Below the pieces are notes generated by a model. The model did no database searches, was not told where the DNA came from, and was given only the letters and a program-made list of their open reading frames with translations. Below are positions 5,027 through 60,094 of a stretch of 64,000 nt of DNA, one piece after another (the first letter of the stretch is position 1; each line of letters opens with the position of its first letter). Source of the DNA: an uncultured Gammaproteobacteria bacterium (lineage in GTDB: Bacteria; Patescibacteriota; Patescibacteriia; UBA2196); contig CAZFWC010000001.1 of assembly GCA_964522515.1 (NCBI GenBank), positions 14,536 through 78,535 of the forward strand, read 5' to 3'. Made by a program: the position numbers and the translations under genes.

Positions 5027-7900
5027 TTACTGCATTTTTATTAAATAATATCCATCAGTTTCTAAGTTATCTTGATAAATAATTTTTTGTCCAGATTTGT
5101 TAAGTTTATTTTTAGCTTTGTGATCAATTATTTCAAAATCAGCAGGTAAAGTGATTTGACTTGTGAAATCAGTTAAAGATAATCCTGGTTGTTTTTGAAC
5201 AATTAAATTGTATTGCAAATTATTTTTTTGATTATTAAAATTTAAAAATCCAAATATTTTTTCAAAGAAATTTTCATCATTTTTTTCAAGTTTAAAAGGT
5301 AATTTATATTTTAAAATAATTTCTTTTGATTCATTTGGTTTTAAACTTAACCACCCAGCGAAAACAGTTTTATCAAATTCTTCAGTAATTCTAACATTAA
5401 ATTCTTCATTTAAAATAGGATTTTTTTCAATATTTTTTAAATCAACATCTTCAGTTAAATTTATTTGATTGTCAGCCGCAGCTTTAACAAGAAAACTTGG
5501 TTTAATTTCAAAACCATTTGCAGAAATTAATTTACTATTTTTTGGAACATAAAATTTAATATAATCTACATTTTCTGCTTTTTCAAAAATATCATTTAAA
5601 TCCCCGTTGTGTTTTCTTTTTAAAGAAACAGTATCAATTAAATCTCCATTAGAATTTATTTCAACAAAATGAGAAATTTGATTTTTAATTACTTTATCTG
5701 TTTTTCCACCTGCTAAACTAGCGTGAAAAATTGCAAGATAATCACCTTGTGTTTGCGCGATTTTTCCAGACCAAGAAAATTCATTTGCAACTTTTTGCAT
5801 TTCATTATTTTTAAACCACAAAAGAATATTTTTGTTGGATAAATTATTAAAAATTGTTTGCGCAAAAGTTGGTGTTTGATCAATTTTTAAATTAAAAATT
5901 TTTTCTAATAATTTTGGCATCAAATCCGCAATAATTTGTTTTGGTTTATTTTTTTCTTTGTTATATTCATATTCAACAGCCATTTGAATTTCTTTAGTAA
6001 AATTTTCTTGTGAAATTGTTTTTTCATAATTTGGCATTTCAATTGGACCAGTTATTTTTAGCAAATCTTTTATTAGATCAGGCGTTAGTGTAATTATTCC
6101 GTCCAAAGTTGTTCCCCCTAAAGTGTCTTCATAAAATAATGAGATTTTTTTTGCAGACGCTTCCCAATCTGCAAACCAATTTGCGTCCCAAATTTTCCAA
6201 TCAGGTGAAAAATGTTGTAGTTGTTTTGGAGCTTCAACTTGCATTTTAGTTGAGGCTTTTAAATCATAAAATCCTCCACCAGGAATTTTTAAATTAATAA
6301 TTTTTGCGTTTTGAATTTCAATTAAAGCATAAGACCCCATAAAACCGCCAGTTGGTCTGATTTCAGAATTGTTTTGAAAAATAATTAAATATCTCATTAT
6401 TTTATTTTGTCCTAAAAATGAATCTAAAAAAATATTTAAAGTTTTCAATTTATTTATATAATTTTTTAAAGCTGGCAACGAGGATTTAAATAAAATTAAT
6501 TTTTCAATATTTTCTTCATCAATATATTTGCTTAAAATGTCAACATCAATTTTATCTGCCTTATTTAAAAGTTCTAAAATTTGTGGTTCAATTTGTTTTA
6601 ATTTTTCAGAAGTTAATTTAATTTTTTCACTTAATTTGTTTTCTGAATTTGTGTTTGAATTTATTTTTTCTAATTCTTCACTAAGCTTAGAAATATCTTG
6701 ACCAAGTTCCGCAGATATTTGCCCAATTAATAATAAATTTTCAGCTTGTTGCGCTTCAGGAATAATTTTAATAATTTGTTTGCTAAAAATTCCTAAATTA
6801 GATAAATAATTTCGCGCAATTTTAAAATTAAAATACGCTTGTTCAAAATATTCATTTGCTTCATTAAAATCTAAATCTTTTGTTAAAATAGAAGCGTCTT
6901 TTAATAAATCTAATCCTTGAATTGATTTGCCTAAAACCTGTCCTTTGATTTGATTTGTTTTTTGTTTTAAATTTAAAATTTGTAAAGGCAAAACAATAAT
7001 TAAACAAACTAAAGCAAATGATAAAATTGGTTTAAAATTAATTTTTATTTTTATTTTTTTAAAAGCGGATTGCGTTGAAATTGGAATTGGAACTTTAGCA
7101 AATTTTGATTTTTTAAAAAATAAAATAAAAGTTTTTAAATTTAAAATAAATGATTTTGCTAAATTAAAAAAAGCTAAAGTTGTGTTTTTAATTAACCACC
7201 AAATTGATTTAAGCGAACGATCAACAATAAAATCTAAAACGCGAAATGGGAAAGTTATAATTTGCCAGATTAAATTTAAATTAACTTTTATTACTTTAAA
7301 TATTTTTTGCGCTAAAGTTAGGTCGCTAAAATCTGTTTGAATTATTTGCGATTTTTTTGTTTCTAATTCTAAAAAATTTTGTGTTAGATCAAGCTTAATT
7401 TTTGATTTTATTTTTTGTTTTTCTGGTTTGTAGTATTTAATTTTTTCAATAATTCCATCAGATTCATCTGGCGATTCAAAATCAATTTTTGGTTGCTGAT
7501 CAATTTGTTGAGTATCTTGTTTTCTTTTTTTTTCCTGAACAAAATTGCTAAACCAATCTTCTGTGTTAAAATTTGGAGTTGAAAAATTTGGTAAATTGTG
7601 AAGAGGTTCTTTTTCTTGAAATTCTAATTTCAATAAATTTTTATTTGGATGTTTTAAATCAAGCAAGTGATTTGATAAATTATGTTTTTGATTTGTAAAA
7701 TTTATTTTTGATTTTATTTTTCCTGCCCGCCGTAGCTTTGGCGAAGGAGGGCTGTTGTCTAGTTTTTCTTTATTTATAGAAACAGGAAAAACAAAATCCT
7801 CTGCCCAGTTATCTGATTGAATTTTTTTAAATTTATTTTTTAATTTATTTTTTTGCATATTAAAAAATTTATTGTCCCGAGTACTAGGGATTATCCACAC
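5027..7900 (-). CDS. large membrane-anchored protein, DUF4012-like (RPTGGFMGSY motif)
   Basis: single TM at about residue 290, C-terminal 600 aa with RPTGGFMGSY motif recalled from DUF4012 proteins; N-terminal 70 aa probably not real (GTG start overlaps palindromic elements; likely start near 7858 MQKNKL). Confidence 0.5.
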   Translation of the reverse strand: MWIIPSTRDNKFFNMQKNKLKNKFKKIQSDNWAEDFVFPVSINKEKLDNSPPSPKLRRAGKIKSKINFTNQKHNLSNHLLDLKHPNKNLLKLEFQEKEPLHNLPNFSTPNFNTEDWFSNFVQEKKRKQDTQQIDQQPKIDFESPDESDGIIEKIKYYKPEKQKIKSKIKLDLTQNFLELETKKSQIIQTDFSDLTLAQKIFKVIKVNLNLIWQIITFPFRVLDFIVDRSLKSIWWLIKNTTLAFFNLAKSFILNLKTFILFFKKSKFAKVPIPISTQSAFKKIKIKINFKPILSFALVCLIIVLPLQILNLKQKTNQIKGQVLGKSIQGLDLLKDASILTKDLDFNEANEYFEQAYFNFKIARNYLSNLGIFSKQIIKIIPEAQQAENLLLIGQISAELGQDISKLSEELEKINSNTNSENKLSEKIKLTSEKLKQIEPQILELLNKADKIDVDILSKYIDEENIEKLILFKSSLPALKNYINKLKTLNIFLDSFLGQNKIMRYLIIFQNNSEIRPTGGFMGSYALIEIQNAKIINLKIPGGGFYDLKASTKMQVEAPKQLQHFSPDWKIWDANWFADWEASAKKISLFYEDTLGGTTLDGIITLTPDLIKDLLKITGPIEMPNYEKTISQENFTKEIQMAVEYEYNKEKNKPKQIIADLMPKLLEKIFNLKIDQTPTFAQTIFNNLSNKNILLWFKNNEMQKVANEFSWSGKIAQTQGDYLAIFHASLAGGKTDKVIKNQISHFVEINSNGDLIDTVSLKRKHNGDLNDIFEKAENVDYIKFYVPKNSKLISANGFEIKPSFLVKAAADNQINLTEDVDLKNIEKNPILNEEFNVRITEEFDKTVFAGWLSLKPNESKEIILKYKLPFKLEKNDENFFEKIFGFLNFNNQKNNLQYNLIVQKQPGLSLTDFTSQITLPADFEIIDHKAKNKLNKSGQKIIYQDNLETDGYYLIKMQ
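7722..7755. repeat. intragenic in-frame GC-rich element core (in DUF4012-like gene)
   Basis: CCTGCCCGCCGTAGCTTTGGCGAAGGAGG; ORF continuous across it (…PPSPKLRRAG…). Confidence 0.8.
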
Positions 7901-10442: not shown

Positions 10443-12926
10443 TTAAATTAATTTTTCTAATTTTTTAATATATTTTTCAACTCCAATTTCTTTAACTGAT
10501 TCAACGCAATTGGTTGACATATTTGCTAGTTGTTTTTTATTTTGTAAACTAAATTTTAAAATTTTTAATAAATCTTCTGTATCACCAGCTTCAAAAGTAA
10601 AGCCGTTAAAATCATCTTTAATAAATTCAATCCCGCCAATTCGCGCAGCTAAAACTGGCACACCATTTGATAAACTTTCAAAAATAACTGTTGGTGAATT
10701 TTCGTAACATAAAGACGAAACAATTGTTGCGTTGGTCTGAACAAAAATTGTGTTCAACTCAGAATTAGGAATGTAGCCTTTGAAAATAATTTGAGAACAG
10801 TCACTAGCTAATTTTTTAGCTTCATCTAATGCTGTGCCTGTGCCTGCGATTAGAAGGTTAATGTTTTTATTATTATTTTGTTCAGATAATAATTTTTTAA
10901 AAACATTTATTAAAAATAAAACACCTTTGTATTTTTCAACTTGCCCAAGAAAAAGAAAAGTAAATTTATTATCATTTGCAATATTAGCAAATGTTTTAAT
11001 GTTTTGGTGCCTGTCCGCCGTAGCCCTGCCTTGCCGGCAGGCAGGTTTAGCGAAGGAGGATTTTAATGTTTTTATGTTGATTGGATTTGTGAGAATTATT
11101 TTTTTAGATTTTGGAAAAAATCTTCTTTGATTATAAAATTCAAGTAAAAATTTTGATGATGAAATTATAATTTCAGGATTATTAAAAGCCCAGCGATTAT
11201 AAATTTGATAAAGTTTTGTTAAGAAAAAATTGTGTTGCCAAGAGTTTTCTTCGTTTTTTAAAATTAAACCAGATGGTGTTGCAAGTTGAACTTCGTGAAG
11301 TGTGTGGATATTTTTTACTTTGCATTTTTTAATTGCGCGACAAGTTAAATATCCAACACCTTTTAACATATGAGTCATTGAAACTTCTGGTTTTTCTTTT
11401 TTTAAAATATATTTAATTACCCAATAAGAATGCAAGTTAAACATATCAAAAGCGTGCCAAAATAGTCGTAGAAATGGTCTGTGAGCGTATTTATTTATAT
11501 TTAAGTATGAAAACAGGTTTAAAGGATAAAAACGATAAATAATTAAGTTGTTTTCAATAGTTTTTTTAGGCAACAAACTGCGTAAATTTTTAAATTCACA
11601 AATTGTAATTATAAAAATTTTATGATTTGTTTTTTTAAATCCTTTGACAATATTATTAACCACTGTTTCAGCGCCACCTTTTGTGTAAGGCGCAAAAACT
11701 GAAGTGATAAGGCAAATGTGCTTTCCCGCCTTCGCCTTTAACAACTCTACTGGACTATGGCGGGCAAGCCCTTTATTTTTTTGAGTTGGTAGTTTAAATT
11801 TATAATAGTTAATAATTTTTTCACAAATTTTTTTCCAATTATATTCTTTTTCAACTTTTTTTCGTCCTTCTTGCCCAAATTGTTTTGTTTTTTCTGTATC
11901 GTTTATAAAAAATAATAATTTTTTTGCAAGATCTCGGGCGTCATTTGGTTTAACAATTAAACCAGATTTATTTTTATCAGATGTAACTCGTAATCCTGGC
12001 CAATCTGAAACAACAACAGGAGCGCCACAAGCCATTGCTTCTACTGCTGTAATTGAAAAACTTTCAGTTGGCTGCGTTGATGGAACTGGAACAACAGTTG
12101 CTAAATTATAATAAAGTGGCAATTCATTATGATCAATATTGCCCAAAAAAATTACTCCAAAGTGAACACTAAATTTGTTCACTAATTTTTTATAATAATT
12201 TAATAAATTACCTTCTCCTGCAATTAATAATTTTACATCTTGATGATTTATAATTTTTATTGCTTTTATTAAAACATCAATTCCTTTAAAAAAATGGGCT
12301 TTGTCCAAAGCTTGGGCAGTAAAAATTATTTTGTCTGTGTCTTTTAAATTTAATTTATTTTTAATATTTTCAGTATTTAAATTTGGTTTGAATTTTTCAA
12401 TATCAACACCGTTTGGTACAACTTTAAATTTTTCAGAATATTTAAAATAATATTTTTTGATTTTTGAATGACGCGCGTAATCATCTGATAAAACAAAAAC
12501 TTGGTCAACTGTTTTAAATAAAAACGGTGCAATAATTTTTTGGTGTAAATTATTAACAAATTTTGTAATTCCCTTGCCAACCATATCCATTTGATAATGA
12601 AAAATAATTTTTGGACATTTTTTTCTTTTAATTTTTTTTAAAAACCACAAAAATTCTGCAACACCAAAATACGGATAATACAAATGAACTACATCAAAAT
12701 TTTTAACTAATTTCATAATTTGTGGCGCAAAATCTGCATAACCAAAAGAAAATAATGGTTTAAATAATTTTATTTTAAAATTTCCTTGTTTATAATCAAT
12801 TTTTCTGTCAGCTAAAAATACTGTCACATTATGTGACTTTCCAATTTCATTTGCAGTGTAAAAACACGCTGTCCCCATTCCGCTTGAAAGTGGAGGAAAC
12901 ACTGGACTAATGTAAGCGATTTTCAT
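10443..12926 (-). CDS. two-domain (tandem) GT4 glycosyltransferase
   Basis: two GT-B/GT4 modules, each with a C-terminal E-X7-E-like region; carries two in-frame GC-rich element insertions. Confidence 0.7.
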   Translation of the reverse strand: MKIAYISPVFPPLSSGMGTACFYTANEIGKSHNVTVFLADRKIDYKQGNFKIKLFKPLFSFGYADFAPQIMKLVKNFDVVHLYYPYFGVAEFLWFLKKIKRKKCPKIIFHYQMDMVGKGITKFVNNLHQKIIAPFLFKTVDQVFVLSDDYARHSKIKKYYFKYSEKFKVVPNGVDIEKFKPNLNTENIKNKLNLKDTDKIIFTAQALDKAHFFKGIDVLIKAIKIINHQDVKLLIAGEGNLLNYYKKLVNKFSVHFGVIFLGNIDHNELPLYYNLATVVPVPSTQPTESFSITAVEAMACGAPVVVSDWPGLRVTSDKNKSGLIVKPNDARDLAKKLLFFINDTEKTKQFGQEGRKKVEKEYNWKKICEKIINYYKFKLPTQKNKGLARHSPVELLKAKAGKHICLITSVFAPYTKGGAETVVNNIVKGFKKTNHKIFIITICEFKNLRSLLPKKTIENNLIIYRFYPLNLFSYLNINKYAHRPFLRLFWHAFDMFNLHSYWVIKYILKKEKPEVSMTHMLKGVGYLTCRAIKKCKVKNIHTLHEVQLATPSGLILKNEENSWQHNFFLTKLYQIYNRWAFNNPEIIISSSKFLLEFYNQRRFFPKSKKIILTNPINIKTLKSSFAKPACRQGRATADRHQNIKTFANIANDNKFTFLFLGQVEKYKGVLFLINVFKKLLSEQNNNKNINLLIAGTGTALDEAKKLASDCSQIIFKGYIPNSELNTIFVQTNATIVSSLCYENSPTVIFESLSNGVPVLAARIGGIEFIKDDFNGFTFEAGDTEDLLKILKFSLQNKKQLANMSTNCVESVKEIGVEKYIKKLEKLI
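11010..11060. repeat. intragenic in-frame GC-rich element (tandem GT4 gene)
   Basis: CTGTCCGCCGTAGCCCTGCCTTGCCGGCAGGCAGGTTTAGCGAAGGAGG. Confidence 0.8.
11724..11770. repeat. intragenic in-frame GC-rich element, opposite orientation (tandem GT4 gene)
   Basis: CCCGCCTTCGCC...CTACTGGACTATGGCGGGCAAG. Confidence 0.8.
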
Positions 12927-17241: not shown

Positions 17242-19359
17242 TTAATAAGCTAAAATCTCAACTTCCTCATCTTGATCAATATCAAATGCGCTTACTTTAG
17301 CGCCGTTGCGAGAATCTGGATCAAAAGCAAAAAACCCAGGATCAACTAAATGACCAATTTTATCATAAATCCTAATGTGCGGACCGCCAGTTAAACCTGC
17401 TCCTGTAATTATCTCATCTTTTCCATCATTATTCAAATCTAGGCAAGCAACATTTACGCCACCTCTGAATTTTAAATCATAAGAAAAAAATCCAGGATCA
17501 AATAAATGTCCGTCAGATCTGAAAATTCTAATGTGTGGACCGCCACCAAAACCAGCGCCAGTTACAATTTCTTTGTAACCATTTCCATTTAAATCACCTA
17601 AAGCCACATTTACTCCACCACGAAAATTTTTATTATAAGCAAACCAGCCTGTGTGAATTAAGTTTCCTTGATAATTAAAAATTCTAATTTGCGGTCCGCC
17701 ACCTTGTTGCGTTCCAGTTACAATTTCTAATTTTTTATCATCTTGAATATTTCCAATTGCAATATTAATTCCTGAATTATATTTTTCTCCATAAGGATAA
17801 AAAGTTTTAACTAAATTATTTTGAGAATTAAAAATTTTAACTGAATTTGAATTTGCCACAATTGTTTCAAATTTTCCATCTTGGTCTAAATCAGAAATAT
17901 TAATTTGTGCGCCACCTTCAAATTTTGATAAGTAAGCAAAAAAACCAGATCTTTTATTGTTTCCGCGTTTATCAAAAATTCTTAAATAAGAACCATTTAT
18001 AAAAGTTGTATTTATTAAATTAAATTCTTCTTGATTGTTTTCCTGATTAATTAATTCTAATTTTTTTAATAAAATAATTCCGTCTTGTGCTGGTAAAAAA
18101 ATTTGTTTAACCAATTCTCCGTTATTTATTTTTTTATCTTGCACCCCACGAATTTTTTCATAAACTGCATTGTTGTCTAAATTAATTATTTGATTTTGCT
18201 GTGTAGAATTAACTAAAGCAATTCCGTTTTCAAAATCACGACGCCAAATTCCTGATTCGTATTGAACACTAAATTTGTCTTGCCCGCCGTAGCCTTGGCG
18301 AAGGTGGGTCAGTAAATTTTGCGCGGAATTAATTGGTTGACCTAAATTAATATTGTATTCATCATACCACCAAAGTTGAGAGTGATCTTCTGTGCCAAAA
18401 TCAAACGCAAAATATCCATTTTCTAACAAACTTGAAGCTAAACCAAAACGCACTTTTTTAAAATTATTTTTATCACCAGTATTATTTGTATTTGGGTTTA
18501 AAATAATAATATGTGGTAAATAATTAATAGAATTATTTAAATTTTTATAATCATTCATTTGTCCAACCCAACTTCCTTGCCATTTGTCTGGCCAAGATTC
18601 ATAAATTCTACCGTTAATAAAATTTTTTGTGTAACTTGAACTGTTAATTAAAATAATTTTATTATTTCCTAATTCTTTTCTAGTATTTTCTAATAATTTT
18701 TTCATTCCTTCTTGCCACTGGTTGTCAGTTAAATTTGTATTATTAATTTTATCTAAAACATTATCAAAAAAAACTCCATCCCAATTTCCAGTGTTAATTA
18801 ATTCTTGTTTAACAAATTTGGGTAGCCAAGAATTAAATTCAGAATTCGTAACATTAAATGAATAATTTCCTGGCCAAATTGAGTGAATATTATTTTGTTT
18901 ATCTTTTAACCACCAAGATGAATTAATTTGCGCATACATTTTATGCCACGGACCATTTGAGCTTTCTAAAATTTTATAATTTTGAATTGGAAATTCCATT
19001 GAAGAAAGATAAGCAATAATTTTAATATTAGGATTAAGATTTTTTAATTCAGAAAAAATATTTAGGTTTGTGTCTTGAACTTGCATTCCTAAAATAACCA
19101 CATCCCATTTTGCTAATTTATTTATTTCAGAATTTGAAATTGGAGTTTTTAAATAATAATTTGCAAGTTTTGGGTAGCTGTTATAACTAGCTTGCGCTGG
19201 TTGTAAAAATAAAAAAAACGCTAAAAAAATTAACGCCAATAAAACAAAAAAAGCAACATTTTTAAAGTTATTTTTTAAATTTATAAATTTGCTCCAATTC
19301 TTTATAATATTGTTCAGAATTGTACAATTTAGCCACTTTTTGTTGAATTTCATATTCAT
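17242..19359 (-). CDS. secreted protein: N-terminal glycoside-hydrolase-like domain plus C-terminal FG-GAP/beta-propeller repeats
   Basis: signal/TM anchor; repeated DxDxDG...VTGAGxGGGPHIRIF units (FG-GAP-like); contains an in-frame GC-rich element. Confidence 0.55.
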   Translation of the reverse strand: MNMKFNKKWLNCTILNNIIKNWSKFINLKNNFKNVAFFVLLALIFLAFFLFLQPAQASYNSYPKLANYYLKTPISNSEINKLAKWDVVILGMQVQDTNLNIFSELKNLNPNIKIIAYLSSMEFPIQNYKILESSNGPWHKMYAQINSSWWLKDKQNNIHSIWPGNYSFNVTNSEFNSWLPKFVKQELINTGNWDGVFFDNVLDKINNTNLTDNQWQEGMKKLLENTRKELGNNKIILINSSSYTKNFINGRIYESWPDKWQGSWVGQMNDYKNLNNSINYLPHIIILNPNTNNTGDKNNFKKVRFGLASSLLENGYFAFDFGTEDHSQLWWYDEYNINLGQPINSAQNLLTHLRQGYGGQDKFSVQYESGIWRRDFENGIALVNSTQQNQIINLDNNAVYEKIRGVQDKKINNGELVKQIFLPAQDGIILLKKLELINQENNQEEFNLINTTFINGSYLRIFDKRGNNKRSGFFAYLSKFEGGAQINISDLDQDGKFETIVANSNSVKIFNSQNNLVKTFYPYGEKYNSGINIAIGNIQDDKKLEIVTGTQQGGGPQIRIFNYQGNLIHTGWFAYNKNFRGGVNVALGDLNGNGYKEIVTGAGFGGGPHIRIFRSDGHLFDPGFFSYDLKFRGGVNVACLDLNNDGKDEIITGAGLTGGPHIRIYDKIGHLVDPGFFAFDPDSRNGAKVSAFDIDQDEEVEILAY
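18279..18310. repeat. intragenic in-frame GC-rich element core (FG-GAP protein gene)
   Basis: CTTGCCCGCCGTAGCCTTGGCGAAGGTGGG. Confidence 0.8.
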
Positions 19360-29360: not shown

Positions 29361-30167
29361 TTACTTTGTCAAAATTTCACTTCCTTTTTCAGTTACTAAA
29401 ATTGTGTGTTCAAAATGCGCAGCTAAGGAATTGTCTTCGGTTTTAAACGCGTTAGTTTTTTTATCAACAACAACATCTGGATTCCCAGCTGTAACCATTG
29501 GCTCAATTGCTAAAGTCATTCCTGATTTTAAAATCGGACCAGTTCCTTTTTTCCCAAAATTTGGAATTTGTGGAGGCTCGTGCAATTTTTTTCCAACCCC
29601 GTGCCCAACTAATTCATAAACCACGCTAAATTTATTTTTTTCAACAAATCTTTGAATTTCATAAGAAATATTACCTAAATAAATTCCTGGTTTTATTTTT
29701 TTAATTGCTAAATCCAAAGATTTTTTAGTTACACTCAGAAGTTTTTTTGTTGAATGAGAAATTTTTCCAATTGAAACTGTTTTTGCCATATCTGTAATCA
29801 TTCCATTCCCTCCTTCGCCAAGCCTGCCTGACGGCAAGGCAGGGCTACAGCGGGCAGGTTTTGCAGGATATCTTAATCCAATATCAATACTTAAAATATC
29901 TCCATCTTGTAAAATGCGATTTGGAATTGCTGGCGCGTGCACAACTTCATTATTAATACAAGTACAAATCGCTGTTGGAAATCCTTGATAACCTTTAAAT
30001 ATTGGCCAACCATTTATTTTTTTTATTTCTTTTTCCGCTAATTCATTTAGTTCTTTTGTGCCAACACCAATATCAGCTTTTTTAATAAGCAAATTTAAAA
30101 TTCGCGCTAAATGTTTTCCGCATTCTCGCATTATTTCAATTTCTTTTGGGGTTTTTATGATAATCAT
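29361..30167 (-). CDS. map: methionine aminopeptidase type I
   Basis: MetAP pita-bread fold motifs (HGVGKKLHEPPQIPNFG, metal ligands); carries about 57-bp in-frame GC-rich element insertion. Confidence 0.85.
   Translation of the reverse strand: MIIIKTPKEIEIMRECGKHLARILNLLIKKADIGVGTKELNELAEKEIKKINGWPIFKGYQGFPTAICTCINNEVVHAPAIPNRILQDGDILSIDIGLRYPAKPARCSPALPSGRLGEGGNGMITDMAKTVSIGKISHSTKKLLSVTKKSLDLAIKKIKPGIYLGNISYEIQRFVEKNKFSVVYELVGHGVGKKLHEPPQIPNFGKKGTGPILKSGMTLAIEPMVTAGNPDVVVDKKTNAFKTEDNSLAAHFEHTILVTEKGSEILTK
29808..29866. repeat. intragenic in-frame GC-rich element (map)
   Basis: CCTCCTTCGCCAAGCCTGCCTGACGGCAAGGCAGGGCTACAGCGGGCAGG. Confidence 0.8.
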
Positions 30168-33951: not shown

Positions 33952-33960
33952 AATTTATTT

Positions 33961-34096
33961 CTCCGCCTTCGCTTCTAAAAAATCCTACTGGACTACGGCG
34001 GATAAACTCTTGTGTTTAAAATTTAAAAAACATAGGAGCCTGTCCGCCGTAGCTAGAGTTTTTTTAGGATTGAAGGCGGAGGAGGATTAGGCGCAA
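33961..34096. repeat. GC-rich composite element between rplR and rpsE
   Basis: shared modules; right end at rplR stop, left end 9 nt from rpsE start. Confidence 0.85.
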
Positions 34097-34528
34097 TTAA
34101 AATTTAAAACCTGCTTTACGAGCACCTTCTGCTACTGCTTTAACTCGTCCGTGATATTTATATTTTGATTTATCAAAAACACAAGTTTTTATTTTTTTTG
34201 CAATTGCTTTTTTTGCTAAAAGTTTTCCAACTTCAAAAGATATTAATATTTTATTAGTTAGTTTATTATTATTTTTTTTATTTTCAACTCCTTCCTTTCC
34301 CTGCCCGTCAGGCAGACGGGTTAATTTCTCAATTTCTTTTTTATTTATTTCTTTATCACTTGCGCTAACTAATGTTTTGCCTTTTTCATCATCAATTAAT
34401 TGCGCTGAAATATTTTTTAAACTTCTAAATACGCTTAATCTTGGTTTTGTTGCTGTACCAAAAATTTGAGCTCTTACACGGGCTTTTCTTCTTTGCTGTT
34501 TTTTATTTTTTATTTTTTGTGGATTCAT
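34097..34528 (-). CDS. rplR: 50S ribosomal protein L18 (with in-frame palindrome insertion)
   Basis: L18 conserved N- and C-terminal blocks; operon position. Confidence 0.85.
   Translation of the reverse strand: MNPQKIKNKKQQRRKARVRAQIFGTATKPRLSVFRSLKNISAQLIDDEKGKTLVSASDKEINKKEIEKLTRLPDGQGKEGVENKKNNNKLTNKILISFEVGKLLAKKAIAKKIKTCVFDKSKYKYHGRVKAVAEGARKAGFKF
34299..34322. repeat. intragenic GC palindrome module (rplR)
   Basis: CCTGCCCGTCAGGCAGACGGG. Confidence 0.6.
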
Positions 34529-35086: not shown

Positions 35087-35096
35087 AAATTTATAA

Positions 35097-35282
35097 TTTA
35101 TCCGCCTTCGCCCCTAAAAAATCCTATTGGACTACGGCGGATACCTGTCTGCCGACAGGCAGGAACTCTTGTGTTTAAAATTTAAAAAACACAGGAGCTT
35201 GCCTCCTCCTTCGCTAAAGCTACGGCGGGACAGGCGCCGTAGCAATTAAAGAGTTGCTAGGGAGCGAAGGAGGGGAAGCGAT
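35097..35282. repeat. GC-rich composite element between rpsH and rplF
   Basis: full module set incl. CCTGTCTGCCGACAGGCAGG palindrome. Confidence 0.85.
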
Positions 35283-38437: not shown

Positions 38438-38452
38438 AATTTTTTATAGTTT

Positions 38453-38598
38453 ATCCGCCTTCGCCCCTAATCCCGAGTACTCGGGACTACTGGACTACGG
38501 CGGATACCTGTCTGCCGACAGGCAGGAACTCTTGTGTTAAAAAAGCACAGGAGCTTGCCCGCCGTAGCTAGGACTTTTAGGGTTGAAGCGAAGGAGGG
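38453..38598. repeat. GC-rich composite element between rpsC and rplP
   Basis: shared modules incl. CCCGAGTACTCGGG sub-hairpin. Confidence 0.85.
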
Positions 38599-39240
38599 TT
38601 AAACAAATTTTTCACCTTTATAAATCCAAATCTTAACTCCAATTGCTCCGTAAGTTGTGCGAGCTGTTGCTGTTCCATAATCAATATCAGCGCGCAAAGT
38701 GTGCAAAGGAATTTTTCCTTGAGTTAATTTTTCAGTGCGAGCAATTTCTACTCCGCCTAATCTTCCAGCGCAATGAACTTTCACACCTTGCGCACCAGCT
38801 TTTATAATTGCTTCAATATTTCTTTTCATTGAACGACGGTACGGAATTCTTTTTTCTAATTCAAGAGCAATATTTTGCGCCATTATTTGCGCGCAAAGTT
38901 GTGGCTTGTTAACTTCTTTTATATTAATTTGTAGTTTGATTTTTTTATTTTTTATAATTTTTTTTAATAAATAATTTTTAATTTCTTCAACTCCAACTCC
39001 GCCTCGCCCAATAATAATTCCTGGTTTTGATGAATGCAAAATTATATTAATGTTGTCGGGTGATCTTTCAATTTCAACACTTTTTAAACTGCAGTCCCTA
39101 AGTTTACTATTTAAATATTCTCTCAATTTTGTATCTTGTTCAAGTTGTCGCGCAAAAGCAGGTCCACGCTTAAACCAGCGAGAAGCCCAATTTTCGCTTA
39201 AACCAATTCTGAAAATTTTAGGATTTACTTTGTGACCCAT
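38599..39240 (-). CDS. rpsC: 30S ribosomal protein S3
   Basis: KH domain and S3 C-terminal domain (GRLGGVEIARTE). Confidence 0.9.
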   Translation of the reverse strand: MGHKVNPKIFRIGLSENWASRWFKRGPAFARQLEQDTKLREYLNSKLRDCSLKSVEIERSPDNINIILHSSKPGIIIGRGGVGVEEIKNYLLKKIIKNKKIKLQINIKEVNKPQLCAQIMAQNIALELEKRIPYRRSMKRNIEAIIKAGAQGVKVHCAGRLGGVEIARTEKLTQGKIPLHTLRADIDYGTATARTTYGAIGVKIWIYKGEKFV

Positions 39241-39252: not shown

Positions 39253-39903
39253 TTATATTGATTTTCTTCTAAACATTTTTTTCAAAGCGCCACCTTTGCT
39301 TTTTTTACGAACAGTGTCTAAATGTTGCTTTCCTCTATCAGATCCTTCTCGTCTAACATCTTTAATTTCTTTTTTATATTCTTCTTCTTTTAATTTTTTA
39401 ATTTTAGGTTCTAATTTGGTCTCTTGTTTCTCTAATTCTTTAACTTCATCTAAAGATTTTACTATTTTTATATTTTTATCAATTTTTTTCTTGTCTTTTT
39501 TATCTTTTTTAATATCAGATTTATCAGCTTTTACCTGCCTGTCTGGCAGGTGGACCTGTGATTTATTAGTGTCTTTCTCTTCCAAAATTATTGAAATGTG
39601 ACTTGTCCTTTTGTTAATTGCTGAAGCTCTTCCAAATGCTCTTGGTTGCCACCTTTTTAAAACAGGACCTTCATCAACTTTTAATTCTGAAATATATAAA
39701 TTATTTTCTGCTAATTTAAAATTATTTTTTGCATTTGCAATCGCGCTGTTTAATAATTTCAACATTGAATCAGCTACTTTTTTGTTTATAAATTTTAACT
39801 GATTTTGCGCGACTTCAACATCTAGCCCCCGAATTAAATCGGCCACTAATCTAACTTTGCGAGGTGATATTCTTAAATGTCGTAATTTTGCAGAAACTTT
39901 CAT
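39253..39903 (-). CDS. rplV: 50S ribosomal protein L22 with about 100-aa Lys/Glu-rich C-terminal extension
   Basis: L22 core in N-terminal about 115 aa; extension carries in-frame CCTGCCTGTCTGGCAGG palindrome. Confidence 0.85.
   Translation of the reverse strand: MKVSAKLRHLRISPRKVRLVADLIRGLDVEVAQNQLKFINKKVADSMLKLLNSAIANAKNNFKLAENNLYISELKVDEGPVLKRWQPRAFGRASAINKRTSHISIILEEKDTNKSQVHLPDRQVKADKSDIKKDKKDKKKIDKNIKIVKSLDEVKELEKQETKLEPKIKKLKEEEYKKEIKDVRREGSDRGKQHLDTVRKKSKGGALKKMFRRKSI
39534..39560. repeat. intragenic GC palindrome module (rplV extension)
   Basis: CCTGCCTGTCTGGCAGGTGG. Confidence 0.6.
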
Positions 39904-41156: not shown

Positions 41157-41162
41157 AAAAGT

Positions 41163-41356
41163 TTTTCCGCCTTCGCCCCTAATCCCGAGTACTCGGGACT
41201 ACTGGACTACGGCGGATACCTGTCTAGCTGACAGGCAGGAACTCTTGTGTTTAAAATTTAAAAAACACAGGAGCTTGCCTCCTCCTTCGCTAAAGCTACG
41301 GCGGACAGGCGCCGTGGCAATTAAAGGGTCGCTAGGGAGCGAAGGAGGGGAAGCGA
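41163..41356. repeat. GC-rich composite element between rplW and rplB
   Basis: near-identical to 35097..35282 plus sub-hairpin. Confidence 0.85.
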
Positions 41357-41853: not shown

Positions 41854-42618
41854 TTATTTATTTTTTAAATATATTTTTTCAATTATTTCTAAACTTTTTT
41901 CAATAATTAATATTTTCTCAAACTTCAAAAGATCCAAAACATTTAAACTGTCTGCTGTTGTGATTTTAATTCCTTGCAAATTTTTTCCTGCGCTAAATAT
42001 TTTTCTGTCTGCTTTTTCTAAAATAATTAATAATGATAATTTGTAATTTTTAATGTCAAAATTGCGCTTTCCCTCCTTCGCTCCCTGAGTGTCCTTTATC
42101 ACTTCGGCGGGCAAGCTTTTAGTTTTTTTTGTTTTCTTTTCAATCTCTTTAATATTTATTATACTTTTTAAATTTTTCAAAATTTCAACAAATTCTTTTG
42201 TTTTACCTTCAGCTAAATTTAATTTGTCTAATAAAATAAATAAATTATTGTTTACTTTATCAGACAAACACATAAATAATGCTTTTGTTTTTTGTTTTTT
42301 ATTAACTTTTTTAGAAAAGTTTCTGTCTTTTGTGGGTCCAAAAGTCACACCGCCCCCAACCCAAATTGGTGAACGACTTGAACCGTGTCTTGCGCGTCCA
42401 GTTCCTTTTTGTTTCCAAGGTTTTTTCCCACCACCGCGAACTTCACTTTTATCTTTTGTGTGAGCAATCGCAACTCTTGAATTTGCCATTTGCGCAACTG
42501 CGACTTGATGTACAACAGAATTTTTTATTTCAATTCCAAAAATTTTAGAATTTAATTCTAGTTCTTTTACTTTTTCTCCAAGTTGGTTGTAGATTTGTAT
42601 TTTTTTCATGTTAGTCAT
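41854..42618 (-). CDS. rplD: 50S ribosomal protein L4 (C-terminally extended, with in-frame element insertion)
   Basis: L4 core blocks; operon position. Confidence 0.85.
   Translation of the reverse strand: MTNMKKIQIYNQLGEKVKELELNSKIFGIEIKNSVVHQVAVAQMANSRVAIAHTKDKSEVRGGGKKPWKQKGTGRARHGSSRSPIWVGGGVTFGPTKDRNFSKKVNKKQKTKALFMCLSDKVNNNLFILLDKLNLAEGKTKEFVEILKNLKSIINIKEIEKKTKKTKSLPAEVIKDTQGAKEGKRNFDIKNYKLSLLIILEKADRKIFSAGKNLQGIKITTADSLNVLDLLKFEKILIIEKSLEIIEKIYLKNK
42070..42116. repeat. intragenic in-frame GC-rich element (rplD)
   Basis: CCTCCTTCGCTCCCTGAGTG...CTTCGGCGGGCAAG. Confidence 0.75.
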
Positions 42619-43084: not shown

Positions 43085-43131
43085 ATTTTAAAAAAAATTT
43101 ATATCTTATATCTTATATTTTATATTCTATA

Positions 43132-43887
43132 TTATTTGTTTTCTTCAACTTTTTTTTCAGTTTCCTTATTTTCTGCTTTCTCAATTTTTTTATCAGAGTT
43201 TATCTGCTTTTCATCAGTATTTTTATCAGTGATTTTCAACTCCCCTTCCCCTTGAATTAAAACTAAACTATTTCTCGCTCCCGGAACAGCGCCTTTAACA
43301 TACAAAATATTTTTTTCTTTATCAATTTTTATTATTTCTAAATTTTTAACAGTAATTTGCTCTGAACCCATATGACCTGGCATTTTTTTTCCTTTAAAAA
43401 CTCTTGCTGGATCAGTGGCGCCAATTGAACCACCTAATCTTAATTGATCTTTGTGTCCGTGGCTTGCTGGACTTCCGTGAAAACCATGGCGTCTTACAAC
43501 ACCTTGAAAACCTTTACCTTTTGAAACACCTGTTATTTTAATTTTATCTTTAATTTCAAAAGTTTCTACTGTAATTTTGTCCCCGCGTTTTAGTTTGTTG
43601 GCTCCATCGCTCTGCGTGGAACCTTCTTGTTCAGTTTTAGGATTTAATCTAAATTCTTTAAGCCAACGAAAATTTTCTAAATCTTTTAAGTGTCCTTTTA
43701 CTGCTTTTGACAAACTTTTCTTTTTATCAAATCCAATTTGCACTGCTGAATATTTATCTTTGCTGTCTTTTTTTTTAACTTGAGTAATTAAACACGGACC
43801 AGCATTAACAAGAGTGACAGGAATAACTTCACCTTTTTCATTAAAAATTTGTGACATTTCTAATTTTTTTCCTAAAATAAATTTCAT
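43132..43887 (-). CDS. rplC: 50S ribosomal protein L3 (C-terminally extended)
   Basis: L3 conserved blocks; operon position after rpsJ. Confidence 0.9.
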   Translation of the reverse strand: MKFILGKKLEMSQIFNEKGEVIPVTLVNAGPCLITQVKKKDSKDKYSAVQIGFDKKKSLSKAVKGHLKDLENFRWLKEFRLNPKTEQEGSTQSDGANKLKRGDKITVETFEIKDKIKITGVSKGKGFQGVVRRHGFHGSPASHGHKDQLRLGGSIGATDPARVFKGKKMPGHMGSEQITVKNLEIIKIDKEKNILYVKGAVPGARNSLVLIQGEGELKITDKNTDEKQINSDKKIEKAENKETEKKVEENK

Positions 43888-47978: not shown

Positions 47979-49490
47979 GTGTATAATAAAAATGAGGTGA
48001 TAATAATTAAAAATAAAATTATGGAAAACAGAACACTTTATTTTGGCGACAATTTAGAAATTTTAAAAGAAAAAATTCCTGATGAAGTTTTTGATTTGAT
48101 TTATCTTGATCCGCCTTTTAATTCCAATCGCAACTACAATGTCATTTTTAAAGAAGGACTGATGGATAGCGAAGCGCAAATTCAAGCATTTGAAGATTCT
48201 TGGCATTGGACACCAGAAACTAAAAAAACATTTGATTATTTGGTAAGAAAAACCAATGATGGAATTTCAAATTTAATGCAGGCTTTGGAAAAAATGATTG
48301 GCAATAATGATATGCTGGCGTATTTAACAATGATGACAGTGCGATTGATTGAATTGCATCGAGTTTTAAAAAAAACCGGCAGTTTATATTTACACTGCGA
48401 CCCAACAGCAAGTCATTATTTAAAACTCGTTTTGGATGTGATTTTTGGAAAAGATAAATTTAGAAATGAGATAGTGTGGTGGTATCACGATCCTTCTGGT
48501 ACAACTTTAAATAAGTTTAAAAGGAAGCATGATATAATATTCTTTTATACCAAATCCGATGATTATATTTTTAATGCAGATGCAGTTAGGACTCCTTATA
48601 CAGAAAGCACTTTAAAGCAAGGTGAAAGAGGGACAATTTCTTTTGGAAGACCAACCAAAACTCATCCTCTAGGGAGAGTATGTGAAGATGTTTGGGAAAT
48701 ACCAATAATTAATTCTATGTCTAAAGAACGGCTTGGCTATCCTACCCAAAAACCAGAAATGCTTTTGGAAAGAGTTATCAGGGCATCATCAAAAGAAGGT
48801 GATTTAATTTTAGATCCATTTTGTGGTTGTGGCACAACTGTTTCTGTGGCAGAAAGATTAGACAGAAAGTGGGTTGGTATTGATATTACAATGTTAGCTA
48901 TAAATCTTATTAAGAAAAGAATGAGAGAGCAGTTTGAAGATAAAAATATAAAAATAAATATTGATGGTTTGCCAAAAGATTTATCTGGTGCATTGGCTTT
49001 GGCAAAAAAGGATAGATTTGAATTTGAATATTGGGCATTAAGTTTAATTGATGCAATGCCAGCAAAAAGTAAAAGCAAAGAAAATATGCGAGGCGCTGAC
49101 AAAGGTATTGACGGCACACTAGCACCAATTACCGGCGTTAAAAATGGCAATATGCAATATGGCAGAATTTTAATTCAAGTAAAAAGTGGTGGTGTAAAAC
49201 GAAATGATATTGCCACACTCAAAGGAGATATTGAAAGAGAAAAAGCAATTGGTGGTGTTTTTGTCACTTTAGAAAAACCAAGTAAGCCAATGTTGGAAGA
49301 GGCAGTTTTATCCGGAGAATATACTGTTGAATTTTTTAAAGGTGAATTTCCTAAAGTACAAATTTTAACCATAGAAGAATTGTTGCACGGGAAAAAATTA
49401 AATTTGCCATTATGGTCAAAAGAATATCATAAAAAAGCAAAAAAAGTTGAAATTGAAAAAAATAAATTTCAGGTGGGATTGGGGGTGTAG
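47979..49490 (+). CDS. beta-class N6A/N4C DNA methyltransferase fused to C-terminal Mrr-like (PD-D/ExK) restriction-endonuclease domain; likely true start near 48021 (MENRTLYFGDNLEIL)
   Basis: motif IV DPPF (IYLDPPFNSN) before motif I (DPFCGCGTT); C-terminal DKGIDG...ILIQVK resembles Mrr catalytic core. Confidence 0.8.
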   Translation: MYNKNEVIIIKNKIMENRTLYFGDNLEILKEKIPDEVFDLIYLDPPFNSNRNYNVIFKEGLMDSEAQIQAFEDSWHWTPETKKTFDYLVRKTNDGISNLMQALEKMIGNNDMLAYLTMMTVRLIELHRVLKKTGSLYLHCDPTASHYLKLVLDVIFGKDKFRNEIVWWYHDPSGTTLNKFKRKHDIIFFYTKSDDYIFNADAVRTPYTESTLKQGERGTISFGRPTKTHPLGRVCEDVWEIPIINSMSKERLGYPTQKPEMLLERVIRASSKEGDLILDPFCGCGTTVSVAERLDRKWVGIDITMLAINLIKKRMREQFEDKNIKINIDGLPKDLSGALALAKKDRFEFEYWALSLIDAMPAKSKSKENMRGADKGIDGTLAPITGVKNGNMQYGRILIQVKSGGVKRNDIATLKGDIEREKAIGGVFVTLEKPSKPMLEEAVLSGEYTVEFFKGEFPKVQILTIEELLHGKKLNLPLWSKEYHKKAKKVEIEKNKFQVGLGV

Positions 49491-50503: not shown

Positions 50504-52636
50504 TTATTTATTTTTTCCTTCCACAATTTCCTCTGCCACATTTTTCGGAACTTCTGCGTAGTGATGAAATTCCATTGTTGAAGTTCCACGGCCTTGAGTA
50601 ATTGAACGCAAAGTTGTAACATATCCAAACATTTGAGCCAAAGGCACTTCCCCATCAATAACTTTTAAATTCCCGCGCTCTTTCATTTCATTAATTTTCG
50701 CGCGTCTAGAACTTAAATCACCAATCACATCACCCATATATTCTTCAGGCACAAGAACTTCAATTTTCATAATTGGTTCAAGCAAAATTGAACCCGCATT
50801 TTTAGCAGCTGCTTGAAAAGCAATTGAGCCCGCCATTTTAAACGCAATTTCAGAAGAATCAACTTCGTGAAAAGATCCATCAAACACACTTGCTTTAATA
50901 TCTACCATTTGATAACCAGCAACAATTCCTCGGCTCATTGCTTCTTTAACGCCTTTTTGAATTGCTGGAATATATTCTTTTGGAATCACTCCGCCTTTAA
51001 TTGCGTCAACAAATTCAAAATTTTCTGTTTTAAGAGATTGATCTTTAGAATCTTTTTCTTTTGGTTCAATTCTAAGCCAGCAGTGTCCATATTGTCCGCG
51101 TCCACCAGATTGTTTAATATATTTTCCTTCTGCTTCAGCTATTTTTTTAATTGTTTCTTTGTAAGCAACTTGCGGTTTGCCAACATTACATTCAACTTTA
51201 AATTCTCGTTTCATTCTTTCAACTAAAACATCTAAATGCAATTCTCCCATTCCCGAAATAATTGTTTCTAAAGTTTCTTCATCGGTTTTAATTTGAAAAG
51301 TTGGATCTTCTTGCGCTAATTTATTTAAAGCCAATCCCATTTTTTCTTGATCAGTTTTTGTTTTTGGTTCAACAACAACTGAAATTACTGGCACTGGAAA
51401 AATAATTTTTTCTAACACAACAGGACTATTTTCACTACAAATTGTGTCGCCAGTTGTTGTTTGTTTTAATCCAACAGCCGCGGCAATTTCACCAGAAAAA
51501 ACTTCATCAACATCTTCTCGCGAGTTTGCGTGCATTCTTAAAATTCGTCCTAATCTTTCTTTTTTCCCAGTAGTTGTGTTTAAAATATAAGTTCCAGCTT
51601 TAATTGTTCCGGAGTAAACTCTAAAAAAAGCCAAACTGCCAACAAAAGGATCAGTTGCAATTTTAAAAGCTAAAGCAGAAAACGGTTCTTTGTCATCAGC
51701 TTTTCTAATTTCTTTTTGAGATTCCCTGTCCGCCGTAGCTTTAGCGAAGGAGGAATTTTTTGGATTAAAACCTTGAACAGACGGGACATCTAAAGGCGAA
51801 GGCAAAAAATCATTAACAGCGTCCAAAACAAACTGCACACCAATATTTTTTAAAGCAGAACCTGCTAAAACTAAATAAATATTATTTGATAAAGTTCCTT
51901 TTCTTAAACCTTTTTTAATTTCGTCAATATTTAATTCTTTTCCATTTAAAAATTTTTCTAACAAATCATCATCTTGTTCAGCGGCTTTTTCAATTAATTC
52001 TGCGCGATATTTTTCAGCCTGCTCTTTTAAATCAGCTGGGATTTCAATTTCATTAATTTCTTCGCCGTGCTCTCCTTTAAATTCAAAAGCTTTCATTTCT
52101 AAAATATGAATTACGCCTTTTAAATTTTCTTCAGCTCCAATTGGAATTGTATAAGCAATTGCGTTTGGATTTAATCTTTGTTTAATTGATTCAATACTCA
52201 TTTTAAAATCCCCGCCCATTTTATCCATTTTATTAATAAAAGCGATTCTTGGAACTTTGTATTTATCAGCTTGACGCCAAACAGTTTCTGATTGTGGCTC
52301 AACACCTTGGGCTCCGTCAAAAACCGCAACTGCTCCGTCAAGCACACGCAAACTTCTTTCAACTTCTGCTGTAAAATCAACATGACCCGGAGTGTCAATA
52401 ATGTTGTAGCAAAAATCTTTCCAAAAACAAGTTGTCGCTGCTGAAGTAATTGTAATTCCTCTTTCTTTTTCTTGTTCCATCCAATCCATTTCAGATTCAC
52501 CTGTGTGAGTCTCGCCAATTTTGTGTTTTTTTCCAGTGTAAAATAAAACACGCTCTGTAAAAGTTGTTTTACCAGCATCAATGTGGGCTATTATTCCAAT
52601 ATTTCTAGTTTTTTCTAAAGTATATTTTCTTGGCAT
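50504..52636 (-). CDS. fusA: elongation factor G (with in-frame GC-rich element insertion)
   Basis: [18 protein letters not shown]-motifs, full five-domain length. Confidence 0.95.
51724..51755. repeat. intragenic in-frame GC-rich element core (fusA)
   Basis: CTGTCCGCCGTAGCTTTAGCGAAGGAGG encodes ...AKATADRES... in an EF-G loop that is longer than in E. coli EF-G. Confidence 0.8.
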
Positions 52637-53538: not shown

Positions 53539-53546
53539 TTTTATTT

Positions 53547-53632
53547 CTCCGCCTTCGCCCCTAAAAAATCCTACTGGACTACGGCGCCTGTCCGCCGTAG
53601 CCTTGGCAAAGGAGGAGATAAACTCTTGTGTT
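53547..53632. repeat. GC-rich element upstream of rpsL start
   Basis: CTCCGCCTTCGCCCC...CTACGGCGCCTGTCCGCCGTAGCC...GGAGG. Confidence 0.8.
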
Positions 53633-53766
53633 AAATTATTTTAAATTATTGATATTAAAAAAACCATCTTTTGATGATTAAAAAATAATCTACATTAAGA
53701 TTAAACTATTTTAAAAATTGTGTCAAATAAAAAAAGTAATCTGTAAATTGTAAATTGTAAAAAAAT

Positions 53767-54378: not shown

Positions 54379-54384
54379 AAATTA

Positions 54385-54540
54385 TTTTAATTTCCAATTT
54401 CCAAGATACAATTTCCAAATAAATCTCAAAAATCAAATTCCAAAAAAATATTATAAAATAATAATTTAAATAAAATATTGGAAATTGAAATTTGGAACTT
54501 ATTTGGAAATTGGAAATTGTATCTTGGAAATTTAAATCTT
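54385..54540. repeat. long AT-rich inverted repeat built from TTCCAAN heptamers flanking M50 protease gene start
   Basis: AATTTCCAATTTCCAAGATACAATTTCCAAATAA ... TTATTTGGAAATTGGAAATTGTATCTTGGAAATT. Confidence 0.7.
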
Positions 54541-56897: not shown

Positions 56898-56945
56898 CCT
56901 GCCTGCCCGCCGTAGCTTTAGCGAAGGAGGGTCCTGAGGAGGAAC
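56898..56945. repeat. GC-rich element core upstream of ychF
   Basis: CCTGCCTGCCCGCCGTAGCTTTAGCGAAGGAGGG. Confidence 0.75.
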
Positions 56946-60088: not shown

Positions 60089-60094
60089 ATTTAT

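Follow-up and report, generated by a model that had tools for sequence, protein, structure and literature searches.

Short GC-rich hairpin elements lie in frame inside conserved genes of a 28% GC Patescibacteria genome

The stretch of DNA analyzed here, a window of 64,000 nucleotides (nt) from GenBank assembly GCA_964522515.1 (contig CAZFWC010000001.1, positions 14,536 to 78,535), carries many copies of a GC-rich hairpin, here referred to as element E, and some of these copies sit in frame within intact genes, including fusA, the gene for elongation factor EF-G. We consider it probable that several families of small GC-rich hairpins recently colonized this genome, that the copies within genes are tolerated as loop extensions, and that the hairpins are mobilized in trans by a transposase of the HUH/Y1 kind. 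The window contains the str, S10, and spc ribosomal protein operons and a cell envelope glycosylation cluster, with nearly all genes on the minus strand, and its GC content is ~28% overall (range, 21 to 37%). The closest matches of its EF-G are Patescibacteria/Parcubacteria proteins, and the host is a Patescibacteria (Parcubacteria-like) genome of 28% GC. Comparisons were made with L121, a 22-kb syntenic relative whose EF-G is 88% identical, with the loci L229, L230, and L228, and, for a gene with two GT4 units, with the relatives P0242 (from L230), P0243, P0244, and P0245.

The core of E reads CC[G/T]CCTTCGC-(loop)-GCTACGGCGG, and ~30 copies with paired arms are present in the window. With up to one mismatch allowed, the arm GCTACGGCGG matches the window 26 times, compared with 0.18 matches expected and a maximum of 2 in any of 100 shuffled sequences, and a chance origin of the repeats is excluded. 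About 14 copies are oriented one way and 17 the other, with no clear strand bias. Among 142 distinct copies drawn from many phyla, the pair just outside the stem covaries (T-A in 71, C-G in 45, A-T in 5, G-C in 4, and non-Watson-Crick combinations in 17), as do the first and last bases of the loop (C-G in 83 and T-A in 49), and a 5' tag is conserved (C in 66%, then Y, T in 70%, and G in 78%), with no complement on the 3' side. Because the search pattern did not include these conserved and covarying positions, we take the unit to be the 30-nt sequence 5'-CYTGY-CCGCC-GTAGC-YTTR-GCGAA-GGMGG-R-3', an imperfect hairpin in which G.A and A.G mismatches are conserved and the 5' CYTG tag stays unpaired. 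This consensus is the same 30 nt that entered fusA. The covarying pairs indicate that the hairpin is under selection. Canonical E folds at -13.3 kcal/mol as RNA and -7.8 kcal/mol as DNA, while the GGAGG variant, represented by the short copies in the window, reaches only -7.6 kcal/mol (z = -0.5). Only three tRNAs scored above the Rfam gathering threshold in the whole window, with no family at E, and a search of 33900-36300 with permissive E values of up to 5 returned nothing meaningful. The decamer GCGAAGGCGG of the E 3' arm is also present in bacterial 16S rRNA, which we judge to be probably coincidental.

Other hairpin families accompany E. H2 (CCTGCC..GGCAGG, ~21 bp) is a separate family that occurs alone in spacers or nested within E, as in map and in the GT4 gene. 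Hairpin D, which consists of a terminal GTAG followed by TCCCGAGTACTCGGGA, is located in the same spacers as E; a D hairpin was also seen in RluD, in the same genome outside the window (L231, 1937-1950).

The first-pass annotation of this DNA had placed cores of one GC-rich element at nine sites in eight intact open reading frames (ORFs), without a break of frame. All nine sites consist of GC-rich repeat sequence free of internal stop codons. Seven of them are E, including long or diverged forms in rplD and at one of two GT4 sites, while those in rplR and rplV belong to the H2 family, so the idea of a single element at all nine needed correction. The annotation had also proposed aligning the host proteins with orthologues, checking that insert lengths are multiples of 3, and modeling EF-G and MetAP. 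Every intragenic insert proved to be missing from relatives at the orthologous site, all were stop-free with lengths that are multiples of 3, and the models placed the EF-G and MetAP inserts in low-confidence loops on native folds, as described below.

The E copy in fusA (50504-52636, minus strand) occupies 51725..51754 on the plus strand. The insert had been drawn at 51724..51755; its presence was borne out, and the exact unit is the inner 30 nt. On the plus strand the block reads CCTGTCCGCCGTAGCTTTAGCGAAGGAGGA, and comparison with L121 shows a precise insertion without target duplication. It adds 10 amino acids (aa) that are absent from 45 of 45 nearest EF-G homologues (88 to 69% identity) and that face a 10-aa gap in Staphylococcus aureus EF-G, in line with the loop extension of about 10 aa that had been predicted. 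AlphaFold models of EF-G and MetAP were built on homologue alignments. For EF-G, the mean predicted local distance difference test score (pLDDT) was 81, and residues 296-304, between the G domain and domain II, fell below 50. The 710-aa EF-G gene and its flanks were independently assembled from three other samples with 99.8 to 100% nucleotide identity and no indels, which speaks against the annotation's own caveat that resequencing might expose a disrupted pseudogene. Among the four assemblies compared, over 14.7 kb, we found no presence/absence polymorphism of copies. The source samples are listed under JGI 3300005645 and ENA ERZ27248965, ERZ27248897, and ERZ27248922.

In map (29361-30167, minus strand), a 51-nt insert at 29808..29858 (minus strand) comprises E with an H2 hairpin (29823-29843) nested in it and is translated as PARCSPALPSGRLGEGG. 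The 17 added residues are absent in 53 of 54 non-identical homologues, and the junction peptide across the insert is RYPAKPARCSPALPSGR. Against Thermotoga maritima MetAP the insert corresponds to an 18-aa gap, which lies between two Asp metal ligands as aligned to solved MetAPs. The MetAP model had a mean pLDDT of 94, with residues 104-113, at the tip of a beta-hairpin, below 50. Both the EF-G and the MetAP inserts are thus predicted to be disordered loops on otherwise confident native folds. In L228, from another Patescibacteria species, the MetAP gene (1100-1150) carries E at the same codon with a different inner hairpin after GTAG (GTAG plus TCCCGATA..TATCGGGA); the shared site would be either an old insertion whose loop has turned over or a hot spot that was hit twice. 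In another clade (P0169, P0172-P0175, L123, and L124), the same MetAP beta-hairpin loop holds a Cys-rich insert of ~20 residues (CxxC...C, zinc-ribbon-like) that is unrelated to the repeat.

Two further E units of the short form lie in a GHL15/FG-GAP gene and in a DUF4012 gene. The first (18279..18308, plus strand; gene 17242-19359, minus strand) is a clean 30-nt (10-aa) block, translated as (T)HLRQGYGGQ, that is missing in L230 and in 23 family representatives. The second (7722..7751, plus strand; gene 5027-7900, minus strand) lies in the N-terminal tail of the DUF4012 protein and is translated as PPSPKLRRAG. It is missing from the orthologous coding sequence of L230 and measures 27 to 30 nt, as the alignment gap of 27 nt has an ambiguous CTCC boundary. 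The tail itself is coding, as the relative shows, and translation probably begins at an ATG that lies 14 codons inside the ORF as listed.

The GT4 gene (10443-12926, minus strand) carries two copies. One (GT4a; 11010..11060, plus strand, 51 nt) is an E with H2 (11025-11045) placed after GTAGC, in the linker of the second GT4 unit, and is translated as SSFAKPACRQGRATADR. The linker that separates the two GT4 units holds the other (GT4b; 11724..11770, minus strand, 47 nt), a long-form E translated as GLARHSPVELLKAKAG; P0243 and P0244 lack it, and P0245 has a related copy. The possibility that the GT4b copy had fused two GT4 genes was rejected, as relatives without the element also have two units and ~790 aa.

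The remaining sites lie in ribosomal protein genes. A long, diverged E at 42070..42116 (minus strand) in rplD (41854-42618, minus strand), translated as SLPAEVIKDTQGAKEG, falls within an 84-nt (28-aa) insertion relative to L121, and L4 has 254 aa here versus 221 aa in L121. The H2-type hairpin in rplR (34097-34528, minus strand) at 34299..34322, with no strand assigned, is translated as LTRLPDGQG and falls within a 17-aa insertion relative to L229 (L18 of 143 aa versus 126 aa). Another H2-type hairpin, likewise with no strand assigned, lies at 39534..39560 in the C-terminal extension of rplV (39253-39903, minus strand), is translated as SQVHLPDRQV, and is part of a 51-nt (17-aa) insertion relative to L22 of L121. 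Elsewhere in this genome, outside the window, a CCA-adding/PolyA-polymerase gene contains two long E forms (L231, 8120-8158 and 8474-8511) and encodes a product of 580 aa, versus 516 in a relative, and the C-terminal tail of DnaK contains one E copy (L234, 16728-16763).

The reading of E differs among its host genes. The core yields the same 10-residue peptide in fusA and GT4a, the GHL15/FG-GAP gene translates it to HLRQGYGGQ and the DUF4012 gene to PPSPKLRRAG, and in map, rplD, and GT4b its orientation is reversed; these translations bear out the earlier claim that the core is read in three frames (fusA, FG-GAP, and DUF4012) and occurs in both orientations. Over all cases, four of the six frames of E are always open, that of PSPKLRRAG among them. 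A fifth (LRQGYGGQ) is open only if the last base of the loop is G (CTTG or TTTG), and the sixth, closed by TAG, was never found inside an ORF. E therefore encodes no conserved peptide, with up to five frames read in both orientations, and the encoded residues are small or polar. Three sense frames, both orientations, and absence from the orthologues of relatives all support the annotation's conclusion that what is conserved is the nucleotide element (DNA or RNA) and not a peptide, and that it is inserted in frame in the manner of the Rickettsia palindromic elements (RPEs). Given its length of ten codons, its open frames, and its small or polar residues, a copy that lands in a surface loop or linker would therefore only lengthen that loop. 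Such copies would withstand purifying selection and be translated, and point mutations would then erode them like any other coding sequence. Copies landing elsewhere in genes would be lost.

The loss of other copies within genes may be why most copies are piled up as inverted pairs in operon spacers. These pairs are mosaics that reach from the stop codon of one gene to the start codon of the following one. A sense-oriented E comes first and an antisense-oriented E last, and in the middle lies an AT-rich hairpin, followed in some cases by H2 and the GTAG-tagged hairpin D, so that four hairpin families are represented. Nine spacer clusters contain inverted pairs, each beginning within ~15 nt of a stop codon: 18-203, 12931-13103, 35723-35903, 36094-36220, 53544-53645, and the four minus-strand spacers described next. 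Operon spacers in the window measure 145 to 200 nt, versus 4 to 11 nt in relatives (5 to 15 nt in L121). In the rplR-rpsE spacer (33958..34094), the stop codon is followed by E sense, the AT-rich hairpin, E antisense, 11 nt, and ATG; the spacer has 145 nt versus 4 nt in L229, and its transcript forms one long hairpin (-55.9 kcal/mol, z = -8.1). The rpsH-rplF spacer (35089..35280), of 196 nt versus 8 nt in L229, contains three copies of E, two of them long forms and one of 30 nt, together with an AT hairpin and H2. The rpsC-rplP spacer (38448..38606) combines E, H2, and the GTAG-tagged hairpin D and folds at -69 kcal/mol (z = -6.2). The rplW-rplB spacer (41160..41356) has five hairpin modules in ~200 nt, compared with 6 nt in L121. 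In general, spacer transcripts fold into a single long hairpin at -56 to -69 kcal/mol, with z values of -6 to -8. In nine spacers the 3' arm GCGAAGGCGGAG ends 10 to 17 nt ahead of the ATG, so that the arm may act as a replacement ribosome-binding site or a coupling device; it could replace a ribosome-binding site displaced by the insertion from the end of the upstream gene. A solitary short-form E (56901..56930, plus strand) lies just upstream of a ychF-like gene (55844-56887, minus strand).

E arrives as a precise 30-nt block in either orientation and without target duplication. Three clean comparisons of empty and filled sites are available, with gains in both directions: the copy in fusA is present in the window and not in L121, that in the GHL15 gene is present in the window and not in L230, and one in a 700-aa membrane protein is present in L230 and not in its orthologue in the window (8327-10429). 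No target-site duplication was found at these three sites, and L121 has no copy of E in its 22 kb. Related lineages have thus gained different copies after their divergence. The GT4a site provides a series of states, from empty in P0243 and P0244, through a decayed E alone in P0242 (SDFAK-STTDK), in which the pairing is broken and the reading frame is intact, to E plus H2 in the window. H2 inserts alone or into the loop of E, and in map it entered the same point of E as in GT4a. The comparison shows that the nesting of H2 in E happened in steps. Pairing within genes has eroded over time in map, rplD, and P0242.

To look beyond this genome, we searched GTDB genomes, one for each species, for the inner 24-mer and obtained at least 120 loci. 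Among the matches listed are Acidobacteriota, Verrucomicrobiota, Planctomycetota, Kiritimatiellota, Lentisphaerota, Bacteroidota, Patescibacteria, Alphaproteobacteria, Desulfobacterota, Bdellovibrionota, Nitrospirota, Omnitrophota, and others, in genomes of 33 to 76% GC. The sequence of E is constant in at least ten phyla; we estimate that chance would produce a pattern of 20 fixed and 2 two-fold positions ~0.3 times in 1.2 × 10^12 positions of even base composition. The exact 30-mer lies in frame in genes whose translated sequences we read as ValS (Parcubacteria), HsdM (Roizmanbacteria), Tgt (Azambacteria), a SpoU methylase (Saccharibacteria), a radical-SAM enzyme (Phycisphaerae), and a histidine kinase (Chitinophagaceae). 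Two MetAP genes of Patescibacteria contain other in-frame GC-rich palindromes that are unrelated to E, one of 30 nt in L135 (CTAGACCCGTCCGCGGGTCGGACTAGGGTC) and one of 15 nt in L150 (AGAGACCGGGTCTCT), and in-frame hairpin inserts may therefore be general in Patescibacteria. The boldest reading of the distribution is that E is a previously undescribed, essentially universal bacterial mini-element, one constant 30-nt hairpin found at 28 to 76% GC in at least ten phyla with no linked transposase; we regard this as possible, if rather doubtful. Were it true, the mobilizing machinery would be common to bacteria, possibly a core host enzyme, or there would be an unrecognized route of transfer between phyla, and proteins, essential ones included, would steadily acquire loop insertions from E.

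Several known systems resemble E in part. Tagged repetitive extragenic palindromes (REPs) of the GTAG and CGTC superfamilies have been catalogued in eight phyla as inverted dimers adjacent to stop codons, and intragenic REPs add 7 to 30 residues in Opitutus terrae, Rickettsia conorii, and others (Di Nocera et al. 2013, PMC3733652). Like REPs, E is a high-copy stem-loop in the range of 20 to 40 bp with an unpaired, conserved terminal tetranucleotide, it pairs in inverted orientation (REP spacers are 20 to 100 bp), mostly between codirectional genes near stop codons, and some of its copies lie wholly inside ORFs. Hairpin D fits the GTAG definition directly. E differs in that its unpaired tag is CYTG, with GTAG inside the stem as a G.A / T-A / A.G motif, and in that E is one sequence over many phyla, while a REP family is in most cases confined to a single species or genus. 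The arm sequences of E are absent from the supplementary files of PMC3733652, and no E peptide is among the O. terrae REP peptides compared.

RPEs (Ogata et al. 2000, 2002), as summarized in PMC10969869, are ~150 bp, are restricted to Rickettsia, and encode a conserved peptide in each family, which implies that a single frame is used. E is alike in being a palindromic selfish repeat found in frame in unrelated, often essential genes of a small AT-rich genome, at sites compatible with the protein fold. E differs in its length of 30 bp, its use of up to five frames in both orientations, and its presence in many phyla. The annotation's likening of the inserts to RPEs therefore holds for in-frame, fold-compatible insertion and fails for length and for a conserved peptide: the resemblance is one of behavior and not of family membership. 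REPINs are presented in PMC3733652, with reference to Bertels and Rainey (2011), as REP doublets mobilized by the REP-associated tyrosine transposase RAYT. The spacers of the window are similar to these in having two inverted hairpin units and a short spacer that form one long hairpin, in many near-identical copies. Single 30-bp units of E insert alone, however, and no RAYT was identified in the window or its 10-kb flanks. The spacer composites, as mosaics of four hairpin families, are closer to the bacterial interspersed mosaic elements (BIMEs) of Escherichia coli. The GC clusters and "byp" elements of yeast mitochondria are also GC-rich palindromic mini-elements that invade a very AT-rich genome, coding sequence included; the ribosome skips byp elements, and these have no need to preserve the frame. 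The inserts of the window differ in that they keep the frame, decay as coding sequence, and lie in a bacterial chromosome and not in an organelle. From miniature inverted-repeat transposable elements, E is set apart by the absence of a target-site duplication at the three clean sites.

Our searches of open-access papers turned up no link between REPs or palindromic elements and Patescibacteria and no printed copy of the E sequence; searches by arm sequence returned only 16S primers and amplicon sequence variants, and searches by encoded peptide returned noise. The annotation had called in-gene elements of this kind rare and unreported for such genomes. This agrees with our searches of open-access papers, although intragenic REPs are known in several phyla (PMC3733652) and E itself occurs in other Patescibacteria, Planctomycetota, and Bacteroidota. 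What is already known is that REP- and RPE-like repeats occur inside genes; what is unexpected is one invariant 30-mer over many phyla with no visible mobilizing gene.

By analogy, we infer that E most likely spreads as a folded single strand mobilized in trans, and that the enzyme responsible is a hairpin-specific HUH/Y1 transposase (RAYT or IS200/IS605 kind) whose gene lies elsewhere in the genome. E resembles the substrates of IS200/IS605 peel-and-paste transposition in its asymmetric hairpin and lack of target duplication. Several observations weigh against this explanation or parts of it. We found no transposase or RAYT in the 64-kb window and its 10-kb flanks, and no gene recurs beside E in 120 loci of other genomes. 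When ORFs of at least 90 aa from these 120 loci were clustered in search of an autonomous partner, the families that recurred were all common housekeeping ones, and none was present in more than 7 loci. Pairs of E at 0.5 to 0.8 kb from each other (L074 and L217) have no transposase-sized ORF between them and flank a 241-aa ORF and phage structural genes. The copies show no clear strand bias, and their 5' flanks (..ATTC, ..TTGT, and ..TTAG) share no clear target motif of the sort that an element of the IS200/IS605 type should have, although three sites are a small sample for this comparison. A vertically inherited, lineage-specific RAYT does not square with one sequence kept in at least ten phyla. 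Only marginal partial matches to E were found in collections of plasmids (7.3 Gb) and cultured phages (2.3 Gb), and IMG/VR gave only 22 exact matches in 2.9 million contigs. As to the consequences of insertion, translation of the inserts is deduced from their frame, length, and decay, and the Shine-Dalgarno role of the 3' arm is our reading of its position, with the arm base paired in the predicted fold. Spread could instead proceed without a dedicated transposase, by templated insertion or gene conversion at microhomology during host repair or through a conserved host enzyme that recognizes the hairpin. The absence of a transposase near any copy and the near absence of E from plasmids and cultured phages speak for such a route, an identical sequence over at least ten phyla would follow naturally from a conserved host factor, and the empty DUF4012 allele already ends in GCGCTCC, like the end of the element. 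The fusA and GHL15 sites, however, have no microhomology, no candidate host factor was identified, and a site-specific nuclease or transposase would more typically insert a constant, clean 30-nt block that includes the unpaired tag. We consider the host route unlikely.

The hairpins might also be selected functional RNAs, serving as mRNA stabilizers, RNase III sites, attenuators, or translational couplers, with copies inside genes pausing ribosomes or shaping mRNA decay. The great stability of the intergenic composites (z of -6 to -8), their consistent placement from stop to start codon with the 3' arm 10 to 17 nt before the ATG, and the covariation of the stem pairs are all in keeping with this, and REPs are thought to act partly as RNA (PMC3733652). 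Even so, we hold it to be improbable: the element occurs in both orientations, also inside genes; L121, despite an EF-G that is 88% identical, does without any copy; the intragenic copies are of the weak-stem variant (-7.6 kcal/mol, z = -0.5) and have lost pairing over time in map, rplD, and P0242; and no Rfam family matches. A still smaller chance is left for the inserts being untranslated, either cut from the mRNA or bypassed as in the mitochondrial byp elements or T4 gene 60. GC-rich hairpins within AT-rich genes do recall yeast mitochondria, but neither removal nor bypass needs inserts that are all stop-free and multiples of three in length, or a TAG-closed frame that is never found inside ORFs. 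Moreover, the old copy in P0242 mutated its stem yet kept its frame, and the many unrelated phyla share no common take-off or landing codons. Finally, this is a metagenome-derived genome, and repeats can mislead assemblers. Nevertheless, errors of assembly or sequencing as the source of the inserts, or pseudogene status of the host genes, are hardly credible given the independent assemblies of the 710-aa EF-G gene and its flanks from three other samples (99.8 to 100% identity, no indels), the diverged orthologous copies in other species, the intact host ORFs, and the high-confidence folds modeled for EF-G and MetAP. We thus retain colonization by mobile hairpins, probably driven by an HUH/Y1 transposase acting in trans, as the best account of the data.

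On this account, streamlined Patescibacteria genomes, usually called minimal or compact, can be heavily colonized by selfish hairpin DNA, which adds loops of ten residues to EF-G, MetAP, ribosomal proteins, DnaK, and the CCA-adding enzyme. The series from empty site to E to E plus H2 represents a concrete route by which proteins gain loops that then decay into ordinary coding sequence. Such inserts distort and inflate gene calls, protein alignments, and ribosomal protein phylogenies of uncultured bacteria. If the spread of an invariant 30-mer between phyla holds, it raises the mechanistic question of what mobilizes E.

The window has several other features of interest. A gene for an N6/N4 DNA methylase fused to an Mrr-type restriction endonuclease domain (47979-49490, plus strand) lies on the opposite strand between tuf and fusA, at a position where L121 has other small ORFs. 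The adk-map spacer (30168-30851) measures 684 nt, compared with an overlap of adk and map in L229, and the listed ORF of Adk has an N-terminal extension of 27 residues. L3, S8, and other ribosomal proteins show further lineage-specific insertions or C-terminal extensions (43609-43644, 35533-35562, and 43132-43206) that are AT rich and not derived from the hairpin repeats. In the gene for a PEGA-domain protein (23825-25819), an internal duplication of 216 nt with 83% identity (24176-24391 and 24731-24946) falls in the most GC-rich stretch of the window (37%).

Repeats of other kinds were also seen. An AT-rich repeat of 64 to 70 nt that is unrelated to E occurs in three spacers (3721-3784, 17101-17180, and 30773-30842) in both orientations, with the consensus CAGAATAAACCAGAATTT.AATTCG.G..AATTTTAGGTAATTCTGG.AATTCG.GTTCTATT. 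An AT-rich element of ~146 nt is present in two copies (54381-54537 and 60093-60242) that are 84% complementary to each other; it is a long palindrome with arms at 54384-54452 and 54469-54537. Tandem arrays of the heptamers AATTACA, AGTGATT, TTTATAT, and AAATTGA, with 4 to 5 copies each, lie in spacers (8624-8657, 14238-14267, 43098-43133, and 61398-61430), and AATTACA-like runs appear again at 9718-9774, 33440-33487, and 40233-40296 and upstream of rpsL.

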